DNA from: a virus
Lineage: Duplodnaviria > Heunggongvirae > Uroviricota > Caudoviricetes
Reading direction: 5' to 3' (one strand)
Virus record (IMG/VR): IMGVR_UViG_2690316166_000015
Length of the DNA stretch: 4,880 nucleotides
In this document: positions 55 to 4,880 of the stretch, piece by piece
Numbering within the stretch: position 1 is the stretch's first letter
Layout: each line of letters starts with the position of its first letter
Program-made: the position numbers and the translations under genes
Notes under the pieces: model-generated
What the model saw: the letters and a program-made list of their open reading frames with translations, nothing else
Databases searched by the model: none
Told to the model about the DNA's origin: nothing

Positions 55-1119
55 TCACCCCCTGAATCCCGGCGGAATTTCGGTATCCGGTTCAGAAATA
101 TGATTCACACAACGCTGGTTGTTCGTGCCGCTTACCGGGAGCAACCAGGGGTTTTCAAAATTCCGGTCCGGCCCAAAAAACGTCGTCGCTCGCTGAACAA
201 ATTCCGTTCCCGCTTTCCCGGTCGCCGCCAGGTATCTCGCGTAACGCCTCACACCATCCAGCATGGTCTCTGGTGGCACCCCCTCGCGCAATCTGGCCTT
301 CCAGGCACTGAATGCGGATTTCTTCGGGTTTGCCCCGGCACGCAACGGGTATTCCCGCCAGACCTGTTCGAACACATCCGGATAATCCACTCGTCCCACA
401 GGCTGCCCGGTGTTTTCCGGGGCTACCCGATCGGCTTCCCGCTGAATGGCGGAATCGGCTTCAGGCTGCTGCAGTTGGAGTGATTGCTCCGGCCTTGCGG
501 TCATCACCTGCTGCACAGCGCCCGAATCGGCTTTCAGCGCATACGCTGAATCGGCTTCCGGTGTCGAGCCTGCTGGCTGACCAGGATTGACGGTCTGAAC
601 ATCCCCTGCCTGGTTCGTGGCGTTTTTTACGCCATGGACCATAGTGTTTTGATCTTCTTTATCTGTATCTTTATCTGTATCTGTCGTGACTCGTCGTGAC
701 ATGTGCGTGACATTTCGTGACGCGCCGTGACAATCGCCATTTTGTTCCCGCTTTCTTTCCCTCTCTCGCTGCGCCCTCTTGCGCTCTGCAGGAGATTTTG
801 CGGTTTGCGAAATATTGCCGTTGTCCTCTTTAAGCACCTGGCGTTTTTCCCATCCAGTGATTAAATCACCATCAAGTACCCGCCCCTGCATCGTCTGCAA
901 AATTGAATCAATTACCTCTTCTGTCACGTCGAGCGCACTTGCCAAATCTTCTGTCGTGACATCAATGTGACCTCGCGTGACATTTCGTGACGCGCTCACC
1001 AGGAGGTGGATATACACTGCCATCACTGTTGCAATTGGCTGCCCTGACACCCTGGCAATTGTTCGCCACTTAGGGTCATTTGGCATGTCATGCCATAATC
1101 TGAGCCAGGCGTTAGCCAT
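55..1119 (-). CDS. Phage replication initiator (lambda O-like / prophage replication-protein family), about 354 aa
   Basis: Long minus-strand ORF from the six-frame track (55..1125). I place the start at ATG 1119..1117 (MANAWLRLWHDMPNDPKW...) because GAGGTG lies 4-5 nt upstream; the GTG at 1125 sits inside that Shine-Dalgarno. Architecture: N-terminal domain, charged low-complexity linker (ERKRAQRERERKREQ, DTDKDTDKED), C-terminal domain with YPDVFEQVWREYP...KKSAFSAWKARL, which I recall from prophage replication proteins. Iteron-like repeats lie inside the gene. Family recalled from memory, not searched. Confidence 0.7.
   Translation of the reverse strand: MANAWLRLWHDMPNDPKWRTIARVSGQPIATVMAVYIHLLVSASRNVTRGHIDVTTEDLASALDVTEEVIDSILQTMQGRVLDGDLITGWEKRQVLKEDNGNISQTAKSPAERKRAQRERERKREQNGDCHGASRNVTHMSRRVTTDTDKDTDKEDQNTMVHGVKNATNQAGDVQTVNPGQPAGSTPEADSAYALKADSGAVQQVMTARPEQSLQLQQPEADSAIQREADRVAPENTGQPVGRVDYPDVFEQVWREYPLRAGANPKKSAFSAWKARLREGVPPETMLDGVRRYARYLAATGKAGTEFVQRATTFFGPDRNFENPWLLPVSGTNNQRCVNHISEPDTEIPPGFRG
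658..681. repeat. Perfect 12-bp tandem direct repeat TTTATCTGTATC x2 in an AT-rich stretch
   Basis: Read directly: 658-669 and 670-681 are identical. On the minus strand this encodes the DTDKDTDK part of the initiator linker. Confidence 0.9.
681..731. repeat. Iteron-like cluster A: five CGTGAC hexamers at about 10-11 bp phasing
   Basis: CGTGAC at 685-690, 695-700, 706-711, 716-721, 726-731 (spacings 10, 11, 10, 10). Contains a 21-bp block GCGTGACATTTCGTGACGCGC (705-725) repeated perfectly in cluster B. Confidence 0.8.
921..1000. repeat. Iteron-like cluster B: four phased GTGAC-containing units plus one inverted copy
   Basis: CGTGAC at 955-960, TGTGAC at 966-971, CGTGAC at 976-981 and 986-991; inverted copy GTCACG at 923-928. 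CTGTCGTGAC (951-960) and the 21-bp block (975-995) are perfect copies of 681-690 and 705-725, both offset by exactly 270 bp. Confidence 0.8.
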
Positions 1120-1190
1120 ACTCACCTCTTCTGATACCGAATCTTTTTACTCACGAGTTGCCGGGAGCGATTCGATATGGCTATTGTCAG

Positions 1191-1616
1191 TCAATGTACT
1201 GCCACAGCATTTCCTGCCGGGCCACCACGGTTCATCTGATTGAAACCGGCGATTGCCACTGCGACAAAATCATCAGCGTCTCTCACCAGTCGTTCATGCG
1301 TCTCCACCAGTTCCCGAAAATAAGCTGAACTGTGGCTGCGCATTCGAGCCACCAGCGGAGGTGGCATTGCCCTTTCGATCGCAGGTAACAACGCCTGAAT
1401 TTTTTCAACAGCGTCAGGGGTGTCTTTATCCAGCCAACGGAAAATCTTTTGGGTGTTGAGATAAAGCGTGTTGTGCTTGCTGTCGTTATGCAGAACCGGA
1501 AACGTCATTCCCAGTTCGAAATAAACCCTGGTTATTTCAGCTGCCGGAACTTTTTCACCGTCCGGATGCGCCCAGGCTTTCATCGCCATGCGGATGTGTT
1601 CATGCTTGATTTTCAT
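1191..1616 (-). CDS. ydaT: YdaT-like protein (prophage CII-like regulator / putative toxin family), 141 aa
   Basis: Complete ORF in the track; N-terminus MKIKHEHI matches my recollection of Rac prophage YdaT-family proteins; sits between an upstream regulator-side gene and the replication initiator as in Rac-type early operons; start overlaps the upstream gene stop (ATGA). Confidence 0.65.
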   Translation of the reverse strand: MKIKHEHIRMAMKAWAHPDGEKVPAAEITRVYFELGMTFPVLHNDSKHNTLYLNTQKIFRWLDKDTPDAVEKIQALLPAIERAMPPPLVARMRSHSSAYFRELVETHERLVRDADDFVAVAIAGFNQMNRGGPAGNAVAVH

Positions 1617-2926: not shown

Positions 2927-3131
2927 CCTTCCAAGGTCGTTTTGCCTTACGATATTCGTCATAAACTTTGGGGTCGTACTGAAGTTCCCCGCCAGATGCC
3001 TCTTGCAGGCGCATCGCGCGACCTTCAGGAACCAGTTCCCCCCATGCAGCAATGCTTGCCAGCCTAACTCCTGCGGCATTGGCAAGCTTTGTTTTGCTGC
3101 CAAAAAACGCTATAGCATCAATTTTCAACAT
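2927..3131 (-). CDS. dicC: Cro-like small DNA-binding protein (DicC / P22-Cro-like); 3' end lies in the masked block
   Basis: ATG at 3131..3129 on the minus strand with AAGGAG Shine-Dalgarno 6-7 nt upstream (complement of 3137-3143). Visible 68 aa: MLKIDAIAFFGSKTKLANAAGVRLASIAAWGELVPEGRAMRLQEASGGELQYDPKVYDEYRKAKRPWK, which resembles P22 Cro/DicC as I recall them. Divergent from a DicA-like repressor. Stop codon not visible. Confidence 0.65.
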
Positions 3132-3207
3132 ATCGAGCTCCTTAGATTTTCCTAAGGAAACTAGATCGTAGAGAAACCTAAGTCAAGAAAAATTAGAATT
3201 CCCTAAT
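3132..3207. promoter_or_regulatory. Divergent promoter/operator region between the cro-like and dicA-like genes, with three operator-like palindromes
   Basis: CCTTAG-attttc-CTAAGG at 3140-3157; degenerate GTAG-agaaac-CTAAG at 3168-3182; ATTAG-aattcc-CTAAT at 3192-3207; centres about 25 bp apart. Candidate leftward promoter: -35 TTGACT (complement of 3181-3186), 17-bp spacer, -10 TAGTTT (complement of 3158-3163). Candidate rightward -10 TAGAAT at 3194-3199. Confidence 0.6.
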
Positions 3208-3615
3208 ATGAAAAACGAAACCTTCGGTGCTCGCCTCTTACATAGGCGTAAAAAATTAAAACTGTCTCAGGCCGCATTAGGTAAGCTGGTCAAAGTGGCT
3301 CACGTAACAATTTCTCAATGGGAAAGAGATGAAACACAGCCGGCGGGGAAAAGATTATTCGCACTGAGCCAAGCGCTTCAGTGCTCACCGACTTGGCTTC
3401 TTTTTGGGGATGAAGATAAACAACCAGGCGAACCGATCCCGGATAATCAGCCAGCCATTCTGACAGAAGATCAAAAAGAGTTACTTCAACTGTTCGACGC
3501 ACTGCCTGAGTCAGAGCAAAAGGCCCTGTTGTCAGAGATGCGTGCTCGAGTTGAAAATTTCAACAAACTTTTTGAAGAACTACTCAAAGCTCGCAAAAGA
3601 AGCGCAAACAAATAA
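3208..3615 (+). CDS. dicA: HTH XRE-family repressor, DicA-like (CI-functional analogue), 135 aa
   Basis: Complete ORF. Sequence ...LSQAALGKLVKVAHVTISQWERDETQPAGKRLFALSQALQCSPTWLLFGDEDKQP...MRARVENFNKLFEELLKARKR matches my memory of E. coli Qin prophage DicA closely. Divergent to a cro-like gene and followed by a ydfA-like gene, as in the Qin dicA locus. Confidence 0.8.
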   Translation: MKNETFGARLLHRRKKLKLSQAALGKLVKVAHVTISQWERDETQPAGKRLFALSQALQCSPTWLLFGDEDKQPGEPIPDNQPAILTEDQKELLQLFDALPESEQKALLSEMRARVENFNKLFEELLKARKRSANK

Positions 3616-3688
3616 TCCCCTTTTTTCTCCACACCCTGTAATAAAAAGCACAAACTTTCAAACACTTGTGTTTTTTACATCAAAAAAA

Positions 3689-3735
3689 CTTAGGTTTTTC
3701 TACACAAAAATCTTGACCGCCCACCTTAGGTTATT
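3689..3735 (+). promoter_or_regulatory. Candidate repressor-controlled rightward promoter downstream of dicA (two CTTAGG operator half-sites and a -35-like TTGACC); the -10 would fall in the mask
   Basis: CTTAGG at 3689-3694 and 3725-3730 (same half-site as the dicC/dicA operators); TTGACC at 3713-3718; the expected -10 position (about 3736-3741) is N-masked. Confidence 0.4.
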
Positions 3736-4326
3736 NNNNNNNNNNNNNNNNNNNNNNNNNNNNNNNNNNNNNNNNNNNNNNNNNNNNNNNNNNNNNNNNN
3801 NNNNNNNNNNNNNNNNNNNNNNNNNNNNNNNNNNNNNNNNNNNNNNNNNNNNNNNNNNNNNNNNNNNNNNNNNNNNNNNNNNNNNNNNNNNNNNNNNNNN
3901 NNNNNNNNNNNNNNNNNNNNNNNNNNNNNNNNNNNNNNNNNNNNNNNNNNNNNNNNNNNNNNNNNNNNNNNNNNNNNNNNNNNNNNNNNNNNNNNNNNNN
4001 NNNNNNNNNNNNNNNNNNNNNNNNNNNNNNNNNNNNNNNNNNNNNNNNNNNNNNNNNNNNNNNNNNNNNNNNNNNNNNNNNNNNNNNNNNNNNNNNNNNN
4101 NNNNNNNNNNNNNNNNNNNNNNNNNNNNNNNNNNNNNNNNNNNNNNNNNNNNNNNNNNNNNNNNNNNNNNNNNNNNNNNNNNNNNNNNNNNNNNNNNNNN
4201 NNNNNNNNNNNNNNNNNNNNNNNNNNNNNNNNNNNNNNNNNNNNNNNNNNNNNNNNNNNNNNNNNNNNNNNNNNNNNNNNNNNNNNNNNNNNNNNNNNNN
4301 NNNNNNNNNNNNNNNNNNNNNNNNNN
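3736..4326. other. Unreadable: 591-nt N-masked block between dicA and the ydfA-like ORF
   Basis: Sequence is N; content unknown. Confidence 0.99.
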
Positions 4327-4444
4327 CTGAACAGGGCTAAGTAGCCAGCCTGAGGCATACGAACATGACGGCAGGGTTCAATCTTTAACTATGCAGCAGG
4401 TTTTTTGTTCCGCCACCCCGGCGTTAAGGGGAAATGAGGTCAGC

Positions 4445-4597
4445 ATGGATACTATCGATCTTGGCAACAACGAATCTCTGGTGTACGGCGTGTTCCCCAA
4501 CCAGGACGGCACATTCACCGCCATGACGTATACCAAAAGCAAAACGTTTAAAACCGAATCTGGCGCGCGTTGCTGGTTAGCCAGAAACACTGACTGA
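4445..4597 (+). CDS. ydfA: YdfA-like small protein (DUF1391-type), about 50 aa
   Basis: ATG at 4445 preceded by GAGG (4436-4439) 5 nt upstream; MDTIDLGNNESLVYGVFPNQDGTFTAMTYTKSKTFKTESGARCWLARNTD matches my recollection of Qin YdfA. The track ORF starts at 4391, but that ATG has no Shine-Dalgarno, so I prefer 4445. Confidence 0.6.
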   Translation: MDTIDLGNNESLVYGVFPNQDGTFTAMTYTKSKTFKTESGARCWLARNTD

Positions 4598-4608
4598 TGA
4601 GGCTGACG

Positions 4609-4880
4609 ATGGAATTTAAAGATTTACCGTCTGATGTACAGAAAACAGCAGCTCATACATTGCATTCTGTGCTGCGAGAAATCGGGAAAGATATTGCAAG
4701 CGAGCCAGCAAAAGATCTGGCCCGGAAAATCAAGACCGCTTTCGTTGAGCTTTATAATGTTGGCACTGACTCTGAAACTGTCGAGACCAAGACCGTAAGT
4801 TCACCAATATTCTCACTTGAGCCAAGCGTATTATCAGGTGAAATATGCACCGAGATTTCCAGCGAACTGCTTCCGGTAAT
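4609..4880 (+). CDS. Hypothetical protein, 5' partial (runs off the window end); acidic, not recognised
   Basis: ATG at 4609 with GAGG (4599-4602) 6 nt upstream and 11 nt after the ydfA-like stop; in-frame and stop-free to 4880 (MEFKDLPSDVQKTAAHTLHSVLREIGKDIASEPAKDLARKIKTAFVELYNVGTDSETVETKTVSSPIFSLEPSVLSGEICTEISSELLPV...). Absent from the ORF track only because it has no stop in the window. Confidence 0.55.
   Translation, partial: MEFKDLPSDVQKTAAHTLHSVLREIGKDIASEPAKDLARKIKTAFVELYNVGTDSETVETKTVSSPIFSLEPSVLSGEICTEISSELLPV

Follow-up and report, generated by a model that had tools for sequence, protein, structure and literature searches.

The 76-bp gap between two divergent genes in the 4,880-nucleotide stretch of DNA analysed here (the window) very probably serves as the right-operator region in the immunity switch of a lambdoid prophage, a switch of the P22-like Qin DicA/DicC type in a heteroimmune allele with the half-site CCTTAG. 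A switch of this kind has already been described at the dicA-dicC locus of Qin in E. coli K-12, and its basic architecture has been known since the 1980s; the window holds a variant with a slightly different DNA word. The feature itself is ordinary but unusually clear to read.

A preliminary description of this DNA had named the flanking genes cro-like and dicA-like and had the array occupy a 76-bp divergent region, and both statements proved correct. By direct reading, the gap (3132-3207) extends exactly from the ATG of the minus-strand cro-like gene (3131-3129) to the plus-strand ATG at 3208. The product of the cro-like gene matched the Pfam family P22_Cro (E 2.3e-13) and was 82% identical to K-12 DicC; in a 99.6%-identical record (L001), the same gene is annotated as encoding a 75-aa 'Cro/CI family' protein. 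The sole Pfam match of the dicA-like repressor was HTH_3 (E 7.8e-14). Its residues 2-69 matched the P22 c2 N-terminal domain structures 1ADR/2R1J with an E-value of 1e-21, and the P22 c2 recognition residues V33 and Q37 (Val33, Gln37) aligned identically. No peptidase S24 (LexA-like cleavage) domain was matched in the 135-aa repressor in the Pfam search. Identity to K-12 DicA was only 62%, and the functional roles proposed below, which are carried over from K-12 Qin, should be read as predictions by homology. The hairpin that follows the repressor gene is probably a terminator. Neither the ORF fragment that ends at 1613 nor the ORF at 4609-4878 had a Pfam match, and an Rfam scan of the whole window matched no RNA family.

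The gap contains three nTTAG-N6-CTAAn inverted repeats (Table 1), which we call Oc, Om and Oa after the corresponding sites of the Qin gap, where the array has been termed lambda-OR-like (PMC10448788, PMC3441716). Their centres, at 3148.5, 3174.5 and 3199.5, are 26 and 25 bp apart, in agreement with the spacing of about 25 bp given earlier. The outer two sites had been placed correctly at 3140-3157 and 3192-3207, while the middle one, given as 3168-3182, was one base short of the symmetric 16-mer. The element common to the three sites is TTAG-N6-CTAA. The full CTTAG/CTAAG word, which had been ascribed to the array in general, is found only in both halves of Oc and in the right half of Om; it is absent from the left half of Om and from Oa, in which the outer base is A/T.

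Table 1. Operators, promoter elements, genes and other features in and around the divergent gap.
Feature	Position	Strand	Sequence	Remarks
Oc, dicC-proximal operator	3140-3157		CCTTAG ATTTTC CTAAGG	perfect 6+6+6 palindrome; positional homologue of K-12 Oc
Om, middle operator	3167-3182		CGTAG AGAAAC CTAAG	right half a perfect cognate word; left half with one mismatch to CTTAG
Oa, dicA-proximal operator	3192-3207		ATTAG AATTCC CTAAT	perfect 5+6+5 palindrome; TTAG core without the class-specific outer base
Shine-Dalgarno, dicC-like gene	3138-3143	-	AAGGAG	read from the sequence; 6 nt upstream of ATG
Candidate -10, dicC-like gene	3158-3163	-	TAGTTT	17 bp downstream of TTGACT; K-12 has TATCTT at the same position; putative
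-35, dicC-like gene	3181-3186	-	TTGACT	read from the sequence
Candidate -10, dicA-like gene	3194-3199	+	TAGAAT	invariant in the class alignment; putative
Ob1	3688-3705		ACTTAG GTTTTT CTACAC	upstream of the dicB-type (PL-like) promoter -35; fourth pattern match
-35, dicB-type promoter	3713-3718	+	TTGACC	reads towards the DUF1391 (ydfA-like) gene at 4445
Ob2	3724-3741		CCTTAG GTTATT (3724-3735)	over spacer and -10 of the dicB-type promoter; right half masked
dicC-like (Cro-type) gene, visible part	2927-3131	-		start codon 3131-3129; 3' end masked, expected near 2904
dicA-like repressor gene	3208-3615	+		135 aa; P22 c2-type HTH N-terminal domain; short helical C-terminal region
Hairpin flanked by A and T runs	3642-3677	+		inverted repeat I3; fold -9.6 kcal/mol, z -2.9
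YdaT-family (CII-like regulator type) gene	1191-1616			Pfam; same operon as the dicC-like gene
DUF1391 (ydfA-like) gene	4445-4597			Pfam

We considered whether the palindromes could be chance products of AT-rich intergenic sequence. The pattern TTAGN6CTAA, with at most one mismatch, had four matches in the window against 0.62 expected; three were inside the gap and the fourth was at 3690-3703. A word-free test was also performed on dinucleotide shuffles of the 76-mer, in which the best of all 256 4-mers in the form w-N6-rc(w) was taken with at most one mismatch and without overlap between sites. At least three sites of one family were found in 5 of 3000 shuffles, and at least three sites with at most one mismatch in total, which is the quality observed, in none of the 3000. 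A looser version that permitted overlapping sites reached its statistic in 27 of 1000 shuffles, a marginal result which favours chance; it was superseded by the non-overlap version. Additionally, dozens of loci from different genera have these sites in the same places, and there the sites covary with distant downstream sites; these comparative data effectively refute an origin by chance. The three inverted repeats with 6-bp spacers reported earlier are thus real.

A generic sigma-70 scan of 2930-3735 called no promoter in the gap, and the promoters there were therefore assigned by homology to K-12; the thresholds of the scan leave out TTGACT-17-TAGTTT and -35-less TAGAAT promoters. The overlap with -10 and -35 elements in both directions, which had been proposed before, accordingly stands by homology to the mapped K-12 promoters and not by the scan. 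In particular, Oc abuts the downstream edge of the candidate dicC-like -10, spans the predicted +1 and overlaps the Shine-Dalgarno sequence of the dicC-like gene with its edge. Om overlaps the -35 of the dicC-like promoter together with the -35 region of the dicA-like promoter, and the GTCAAG/GTCAAT at the -35 position was conserved in nearly all related loci. The candidate dicC-like -10, TAGTTT, is a weak hexamer. The dicA-like promoter has a good candidate -10 but no good -35 (GAGAAA at 3171-3176), no Shine-Dalgarno sequence precedes the dicA-like ATG, and TAGAAT ends 8 nt upstream of this codon; the repressor mRNA is probably leaderless. Oa would cover positions -16 to -1 of this transcript.

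The operator set extends beyond the gap, as two further sites, Ob1 and Ob2, were found within 3688-3741, where they bracket the -35 of the dicB-type promoter. Ob1 is 94% complementary to Om over 16 nt (inverted repeat I1). For Ob2, record L001 alone shows the right half, which reads CTAAAT there. The start-to-start distance between the two sites, 35-36 bp, is conserved in related loci, and in every related locus the site homologous to Ob1 carries the half-site of that locus. This recurrence of the cognate word at the downstream promoter supports the earlier view that the half-site can be read directly from the sequence. In K-12, an identical TTGACC is found at the same place upstream of ydfA; the operators of dicBp have been described there, and genetic evidence shows that dicBp is repressed by DicA (PMC10448788).

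The array was compared with its homologues in a set of 25 non-redundant related loci, drawn from many genera of enterobacteria. All 25 kept Oc, Om, Oa and the two downstream-promoter sites, and the downstream sites matched the Oc of their own locus better than the Oc of other loci (mean 19.7 versus 17.4 of 24, permutation p = 5e-5). For three divergent loci (L016, L017 and L031), Oc was placed by positional homology, as automatic palindrome picking had mislocated it. All eight loci of the same repressor class, from seven genera, had CCTTAG in Oc, CGTAG/TGTAG..CTAAG/TTAAG in the almost invariant Om, and TTAG..TAAT in Oa. Within this class, the stretch from Oc to the ATG was about 87% conserved, with half-sites not clearly above spacers. 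Since the gap as a whole is conserved to this degree and half-sites and spacers are inseparable, we gave no weight to conservation within the class when judging the sites.

Oc is the main predicted repressor site. Its K-12 counterpart by position, TGTTAGTCATAACTAACA, binds DicA in vivo, and one base change abolishes the binding; K-12 Om and Oa, tested alone, showed no DicA binding, and only Oc has been shown to be bound (PMC3441716). The repressor occupancy of Om and Oa in the window is doubtful for this reason, and occupancy of all three sites is not established even in the K-12 model system. These findings raise an alternative in which Oc and the downstream Ob sites alone are regulatory and Om and Oa are bound by neither regulator, their palindromy being owed to the -35 TTGACT, the -10 TAGAAT and descent from an ancestral operator array. 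Part of the conservation of Om and Oa is indeed owed to promoter function, since the overlapping TTGACT and TAGAAT hexamers are kept in all specificity classes, and loci of the E. albertii type have no recognisable left half in Om (GCGCGGGATACCTAAG). However, differences in the local Oc core are mirrored in the Om right half and in both Oa halves: these read CTAAG and TTAG/CTAA in the TTAG-core classes, and TCAAG (TCAGG in some Om right halves) and TTAA/TAAA in the TTGAG-core classes. In GTTAG-class loci the right half of Oa is the exact cognate CTAAC, and in the window Oa is a perfect palindrome, which goes beyond the need of a -10 hexamer. The K-12 DicC ChIP-seq signal is also strongest over this region; its peaks flank dicA on both sides, with a palindromic motif, TT(A/C/T)G..C(G/A/T)AA, of the TTNG/CNAA form. 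We regard a single functional operator in the gap as unlikely and favour an array in which all three sites are regulatory.

A second alternative is that the main binder is another protein, such as a YdaT-type (CII-like) regulator or a host factor (YjdC, H-NS). A YdaT-family gene lies in the same operon, in the absence of DicA the host regulator YjdC reportedly represses DicA targets, and Cnu/H-NS modulates DicA binding (PMC3441716), to which the AT-richness of the gap may be added. In contrast, the half-site class went with residues of the neighbouring repressor at 24 of the 25 loci, and the operator core went with the recognition helix of the neighbouring Cro-type protein. With TTAG placed 4-7 bp from its centre, the 18-bp dyad fits the geometry of P22 c2, and direct genetic evidence links K-12 Oc to DicA. 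Taken together, these observations make another main binder very improbable.

The following mechanism is proposed for the DicA-like repressor and the DicC-like Cro. By homology, a repressor dimer would bind Oc, with each P22 c2-type N-terminal domain setting its recognition helix on TTAG, in a register that, as read from the sequences, is that of TTAA in the P22 operators, 4-7 bp from the dyad. Occupancy of Oc, which sits just downstream of the -10 and takes in the predicted +1 and the dicC-like ribosome-binding site, would therefore shut off the rightward early operon with the dicC-like, ydaT-like and replication genes. This has been shown in K-12, where DicA at Oc represses dicC and activates dicA and where Oc overlaps the -10 of the 5'RACE-mapped dicC promoter (PMC3441716). 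Transcription of the dicA-like gene would depend on a weak promoter that requires repressor at Oc, some 60 bp upstream of the start, and would give a leaderless mRNA; the K-12 dicA mRNA is leaderless (PMC4681348), and its promoter is weak and DicA-activated (PMC3441716). The covariation of the cognate words suggests that the same repressor also binds Ob1 and Ob2 at the dicB-type promoter, the leftward equivalent. Om, with one good half, and Oa, with the TTAG core only, would be weaker repressor sites, which a high repressor concentration may fill too. The DicC-like Cro probably acts on both. Its K-12 homologue binds this region in ChIP-seq, with a preference for TTNG...CNAA palindromes, and Cro at Om and Oa would block repressor synthesis, so that the switch would flip. 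Because the repressor has no autocleavage domain, induction would be expected through an antirepressor, as by Rem, which counters DicA in Qin, or through repressor instability.

A testable specificity rule for DicA-type repressors, with one residue matched to one base, also emerges from the comparison across genera. Tentatively, immunity specificity may depend in large part on a single outer base pair of the half-site, at position 8 from the dyad, which the third residue of helix 2 of the repressor would read in place of the recognition helix, while Cro may read the TTAG core only; we consider this possible, at rather less than even chances. Arg at this residue paired with G at position 8 in 13 of 14 loci, and Ala, Ser or Asn was found with a non-G base in 11 of 11. 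The CTTAG and GTTAG classes have the same repressor helix 3 (VAHVTISQW), and helix 3 of the Cro-type protein tracked the core, not the outer base. The DicC of the window was 85% identical to that of one GTTAG-class locus, the corresponding repressors 66%. If this is true, cross-reaction of Cro proteins would be expected among DicA-type prophages that are heteroimmune and share a host, and the derepression of one prophage could shut off the repressor gene of another; many E. coli genomes contain two or three DicA-type loci. Such cross-talk would bear on the silencing of cryptic prophages with dicB/dicF-type division inhibitors.

With five sites, two or three promoters and a repressor mRNA that is probably leaderless, the operator map can be read directly for a prophage immunity allele that is very common in E. 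coli. The allele was matched in 1390 of 5426 complete genomes, with at least 80% query coverage in 751, and it is also present in ompW-integrated prophages of Shiga-toxin-producing E. coli (STEC). In the searchable literature (the PPompW paper and the DicA/DicC literature), we found no description of the operators of the CCTTAG allele.

The Qin dicA-dicC region was reportedly treated by Bejar et al. in 1986/1988, and it was also the subject of Yun et al. (2012) and Ragunathan et al. (2023). Qin and the window share the homologous gene pair in the same orientation, three dyads at homologous positions and the -35 TTGACT, followed by a TTGACC downstream promoter with two flanking sites and a DUF1391 (ydfA-like) gene, and their gaps are of near-equal length (76 bp here, 83 bp in K-12). 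The half-site is TGTTAG in K-12 and CCTTAG here, and heteroimmunity is therefore expected of the allele. The palindromes of Om and Oa are better in the window; K-12 Oa, at the homologous position, reads TTTAG CATTAG CTAAC. Oc is 7 bp nearer to the dicC start than in K-12 and overlaps the Shine-Dalgarno sequence, and the rightward operon contains a ydaT-like gene and a replisome organiser where K-12 has the remnants ydfX/ydfW. Two further marks of a Qin-type region, the dicF/dicB cell-division inhibitor genes of the downstream operon and a Rem-type antirepressor gene elsewhere in the prophage, would fall outside the window.

The P22 immC region has a repressor with a closely related N-terminal domain (c2), a P22_Cro-type partner and three sites between divergent genes. 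Both systems have an 18-bp dyad, but the P22 consensus ATTTAAGATATCTTAAAT has TTAA where the operator here has TTAG. T7, T6 and A5 from the centre are shared, whereas position 4 (G here, A in P22) and the outer bases are not; judged from these sequences, operator recognition here appears related but not identical to P22 c2 specificity. P22 c2 has a LexA-like C-terminal cleavage domain and is RecA-inducible, whereas the repressor here has no such domain in its 135 residues.

The preliminary description had likened the array to OR1-OR2-OR3 of lambda. The likeness holds for the layout, which is that of K-12 Oc/Om/Oa, while the wiring resembles that of lambda without being identical to it: an autocleavage domain is missing from the repressor, whose mRNA is probably leaderless. 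In particular, the DNA-binding domains are unrelated in sequence, lambda Cro is of another fold, and activation in K-12 is reported to come not from the middle site but from Oc, the OR1 equivalent about 60 bp upstream (PMC3441716). A strict lambda-type switch would also have its two cro-proximal sites filled cooperatively, whereas the K-12 data point to Oc alone. The centres are 23-24 bp apart in lambda versus 25-26 bp here, and the downstream set has three sites in lambda and two visible ones here. The lambda repressor undergoes RecA-stimulated cleavage, while an antirepressor route is expected for the DicA type; the S24 autocleavage domain of a strict lambda CI/Cro switch was not found in the repressor. 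In lambda, a weak, self-activated promoter gives rise to a leaderless repressor mRNA, and the K-12 dicA promoter and mRNA resemble their lambda counterparts in these respects. As in lambda, three operators lie within about 80 bp between divergent repressor and cro genes and overlap both promoters, a second operator set is located at the other early promoter, and the whole would form a bistable switch, as DicA/DicC does in K-12 (PMC10448788).

The divergent gap between the minus-strand start of the DicC-like, Cro-type gene (3131) and the plus-strand gene of the DicA-like repressor (3208-3615) was exactly 76 bp (3132-3207) and was unmasked; the N-masked parts of the window were 1782-2187, 2211-2405, 2436-2926 and 3736-4326. 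We found three dyads in this gap, named Oc, Om and Oa after the operators of the E. coli K-12 Qin prophage, which have the word TTAG-N6-CTAA in common and centers at 3148.5, 3174.5 and 3199.5 (spacings of 26 and 25 bp). Direct reading and shuffle tests thus bore out the preliminary description, which had proposed three inverted repeats with 6-bp spacers and centers about 25 bp apart. Its coordinates were right for the outer sites, but its middle site, started at 3168, was one base short of the symmetric dyad, and its CTTAG/CTAAG half-site was present in both halves of Oc and the right half of Om, with only TTAG/CTAA common elsewhere.

With at most one mismatch, TTAGN6CTAA occurred four times in the window against 0.62 expected, three times within the gap and once at 3690-3703. 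Because this word was picked post hoc from the sequence, a word-free test was also run on dinucleotide shuffles of the 76-mer, in which all 4-mers w were scored as w-N6-rc(w) with at most one mismatch and the best w was taken. Three sites were attained in 27 of 1000 shuffles when overlapping sites were permitted and in 5 of 3000 when non-overlapping sites were required, and none of 3000 shuffles had three non-overlapping sites at the observed quality (at most one mismatch in total). The three-dyad array was confirmed as real and beyond chance, and we regard pure chance as the least probable explanation, close to negligible.

Features of the immunity region and neighboring genes (window positions)
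Feature	Position	Strand	Sequence or remark
356-aa ORF	55-1125	-	"phage replisome organizer" by annotation in a related genome
YdaT-family gene	1191-1616	-	Pfam; farther along from the dicC-like gene
Ribosome-binding site, dicC-like gene	3143-3138	-	AAGGAG; after Oc, before ATG
Oc	3140-3157		CCTTAG-ATTTTC-CTAAGG; perfect 6+6+6 dyad
dicC-like promoter, candidate -10	3163-3158	-	TAGTTT; 17 bp after TTGACT
Om	3167-3182		CGTAG-AGAAAC-CTAAG; one mismatch, in left half
dicC-like promoter, putative -35	3186-3181	-	TTGACT; homology to K-12
Oa	3192-3207		ATTAG-AATTCC-CTAAT; perfect 5+6+5 dyad
dicA-like promoter, candidate -10	3194-3199	+	TAGAAT; within Oa, ends 8 nt before ATG
Hairpin	3642-3677		after repressor gene; 12 pairs, A-run/T-run flanks; -9.6 kcal/mol, z -2.9
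Ob1	3688-3705		ACTTAG-GTTTTT-CTACAC
dicB-type promoter, predicted	3713-3718		TTGACC; between Ob1 and Ob2
Ob2, visible part	3724-3735		CCTTAG-GTTATT, then mask; continued by CTAAAT in the 99.6%-identical record
DUF1391 (YdfA-like) gene	4445-4597		Pfam; downstream of repressor gene

The repressor matched Pfam HTH_3 (E 7.8e-14) and, weakly, Phage_CI_repr, and was 62% identical to K-12 DicA over its full length; a Pfam search of its 135 codons found no peptidase S24 domain. Residues 2-69 matched the N-terminal DNA-binding domain of phage P22 c2 (E 1e-21), for which operator complexes have been solved (1ADR, 2R1J, 3JXB). The minus-strand protein matched Pfam P22_Cro (E 2.3e-13) and was 82% identical to K-12 DicC. 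The K-12 Qin dicC-dicA gap had the same layout: TGTTAG-TCATAA-CTAACA adjoins dicC, the degenerate TGTTAA-CAAAAA-CATAGT lies over the TTGACT -35, and TTTAG-CATTAG-CTAAC stands just before the dicA ATG. As relayed in later reports, Oc, Om and Oa are three K-12 operators of a locus "similar to lambdoid immunity loci", and dicBp, which lies downstream of dicA, has additional operators (Bejar et al. 1988 cited in PMC10448788; PMC3441716). DicA binds K-12 Oc in vivo but no longer does so when a single A in the right half is changed to C; the site overlaps the -10 of the dicC promoter as mapped by 5'RACE, and dicA transcription needs DicA at Oc (PMC3441716). The dicA mRNA is leaderless (PMC4681348), the DicA/DicC pair shows bistable switching (PMC10448788), and the antirepressor Rem antagonizes DicA. 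The OR-like switch proposed in the preliminary description is essentially this published picture of the homologous locus, and the window locus showed every feature of a Qin-type DicA/DicC immunity region that the sequence could clearly test, namely the divergent gene pair, the three gap dyads and cognate sites at a downstream promoter; a description of this allele's own operators was not found in the searchable literature.

Om overlapped the -35 of the dicC-like promoter. In K-12 Qin the dicC promoter (TTGACT-17-TATCTT) likewise has Oc directly following, so in this order Oc covers the predicted dicC-like start site and, here, the ribosome-binding site as well. The dicA-like promoter had a poor -35 (GAGAAA), and no Shine-Dalgarno sequence was seen before the repressor ATG on reading the sequence, which would be consistent with a promoter that, like its K-12 counterpart, is weak, depends on an activator and yields a leaderless transcript. 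The proposed overlap with -10/-35 elements in both directions is supported by homology to K-12; a generic promoter scan called neither gap promoter, so both assignments are inferred. Downstream of the repressor gene, the hairpin is probably a bidirectional intrinsic terminator insulating that gene from the next promoter, and 3688-3741 is, as read from the sequence, a dicB-type (PL-like) promoter with two predicted operators; K-12 Qin is arranged likewise with its own word (TGTTAG-CTATAG-CATACA, TTGACC, TGTTAG-TCATGG-CTAATC). Unmasked 4327-4444 upstream of the DUF1391 gene (ctaagtagccagcctgaggcatacgaacatgacggca...) recurred in a Superficieibacter locus, where it also follows the Ob sites, and was absent from the closest E. 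coli relative, whose repressor-to-DUF1391 distance was ~600 bp shorter; together, the missing stretch and shorter distance point to an insertion or extra gene in masked 3736-4326.

A DicA-homologue profile search of one-genome-per-species contigs gave 48 loci, and exact protein look-up added five. The five-site layout was kept in 25 non-redundant loci with both genes, with the downstream pair always 35-36 bp apart. The half-site was CCTTAG in the window, Salmonella, Citrobacter, Cronobacter, Klebsiella, Pantoea and Enterobacter, TGTTAG in K-12, E. albertii, E. ruysiae, Citrobacter, Buttiauxella, Yersinia, Rahnella and others, and ATTGAG, TGTTGAG or ATTTAG in further groups. When every locus's Oc was scored against each locus's downstream region, mean matches were 19.7/24 for cognate and 17.4/24 for non-cognate pairs (permutation p = 5e-5). 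Across seven genera of the CCTTAG class, the entire stretch from Oc through to the ATG was ~87% conserved, so half-sites could not be separated from spacers by conservation alone. The main rival, which we consider unlikely, limits function to Oc and the Ob sites and takes Om and Oa for promoter-shaped relics, as the failure of DicA to bind K-12 Om and Oa cloned alone would suggest (PMC3441716). However, the right half of Om tracked the local Oc core (CTAAG with TTAG; TCAAG/TCAGG with TTGAG), as did the halves of Oa (TTAG/CTAA with TTAG; TTAA/TAAA with TTGAG), which argues that these are more than promoter hexamers, and the strongest K-12 DicC ChIP-seq signal is at the dicA-dicC locus, where the inferred sites flank dicA on either side (PMC11430063).

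P22 c2 recognizes the consensus ATTTAAGATATCTTAAAT, in which Val33 sits at the TpA step of TTAA, close to Gln37 (PMC5175364). Counted from the dyad, the P22 operator reads T7-T6-A5-A4 and Oc T7-T6-A5-G4, and both residues were conserved in the aligned repressor; given the shared T7-T6-A5 register and these residues, dimeric binding with the geometry of P22 c2 is most likely for the repressor. That another protein binds the sites is very improbable. The CCTTAG class and some members of the TGTTAG class had the same recognition helix, VAHVTISQW, whereas the start of helix 2 differed (S-Q-A-A versus T-Q-R-x). Where the third of these four residues (residue 22) was Arg, operator position 8 was G in 13/14 loci; where it was not Arg, the base was other than G in 11/11. 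This association, which held in 24/25 loci (Fisher p = 2.7e-6, uncorrected for phylogeny), makes residue 22, outside helix 3, a candidate for a single residue that determines immunity. Helix 3 of the Cro-type protein tracked the core (TTAG versus TTGAG) and not the outer base, and between the window and a TGTTAG-class E. albertii locus the DicC proteins were 85% and the repressors 66% identical. Together with the palindromic K-12 DicC motif TT(A/C/T)G...C(G/A/T)AA (PMC11430063), these observations suggest that the core is all that the Cro-type protein reads; Cro-type proteins of co-resident prophages might consequently cross-react.

The 809 bases around the gap were 99.6% identical to a prophage of E. 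coli FDAARGOS_943 and matched in 1390/5426 complete E. coli genomes, 751 of which had at least 80% of the query covered. Matching genomes had up to 3 matching places each, and several Shiga-toxin-producing (STEC) strains had 2, so a single chromosome often carries more than one related DicA/DicC immunity region. The region was ~95% identical to ompW-integrated STEC prophages, whose copies of the gene pair carry the annotations dicA and dicC. The window was a mosaic: 57-1628 (replication and ydaT-like genes) and 4332-4880 (DUF1391 region) were 93-96% identical to E. coli MSI001-type prophages, which bear a different immunity module, while the dicC/dicA region was of FDAARGOS_943/PPompW type; among the complete E. 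coli genomes of the collection no colinear match was found, the best covering 43%. The DicC-like protein and the Om-right/Oa part resembled the E. albertii/E. ruysiae type, unlike the repressor and Oc, which resembled the Salmonella/Citrobacter type; this split suggests a possible recombination joint inside the operator region. Between the ydaT-like gene and the dicC-like gene end lay ~1.29 kb (1617-2926), mostly masked, where additional genes or another regulatory module may lie; the closest relative of the immunity region differs from the window in that its dicC directly overlaps ydaT. No Pfam match was obtained for a minus-strand ORF that ends at 1613 (C-terminus visible as ...GEKILRWCEATGWVVTPHEIDSK...). 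Inside the 356-aa ORF, CGTGAC/TCGTGAC direct repeats formed two clusters (680-731 and 950-991, ~4-5 copies each) with two 39-nt blocks, 72% alike and 260 bp apart, which look like origin iterons within an initiator gene, as in lambda O.

Overall, the gap is very probably the right-operator region of a DicA/DicC-type switch. Oc would be the strong repressor site, shutting the dicC-like operon and supporting repressor transcription; the dicB-type promoter would be shut through Ob1 and Ob2; and Om and Oa would be weaker sites, chiefly the Cro-type protein's means of blocking the putatively leaderless repressor promoter. The proposed residue-22/position-8 rule and the possible Cro-type cross-reactivity are mildly new, and the remainder is ordinary. 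Although the locus resembles lambda OR in how it would work, it does not belong to that type in the strict sense: the cleavage domain was not found in its repressor, its DNA-binding proteins are P22-type, and in K-12 Qin, in contrast to lambda OR, activation comes from the cro-proximal site.
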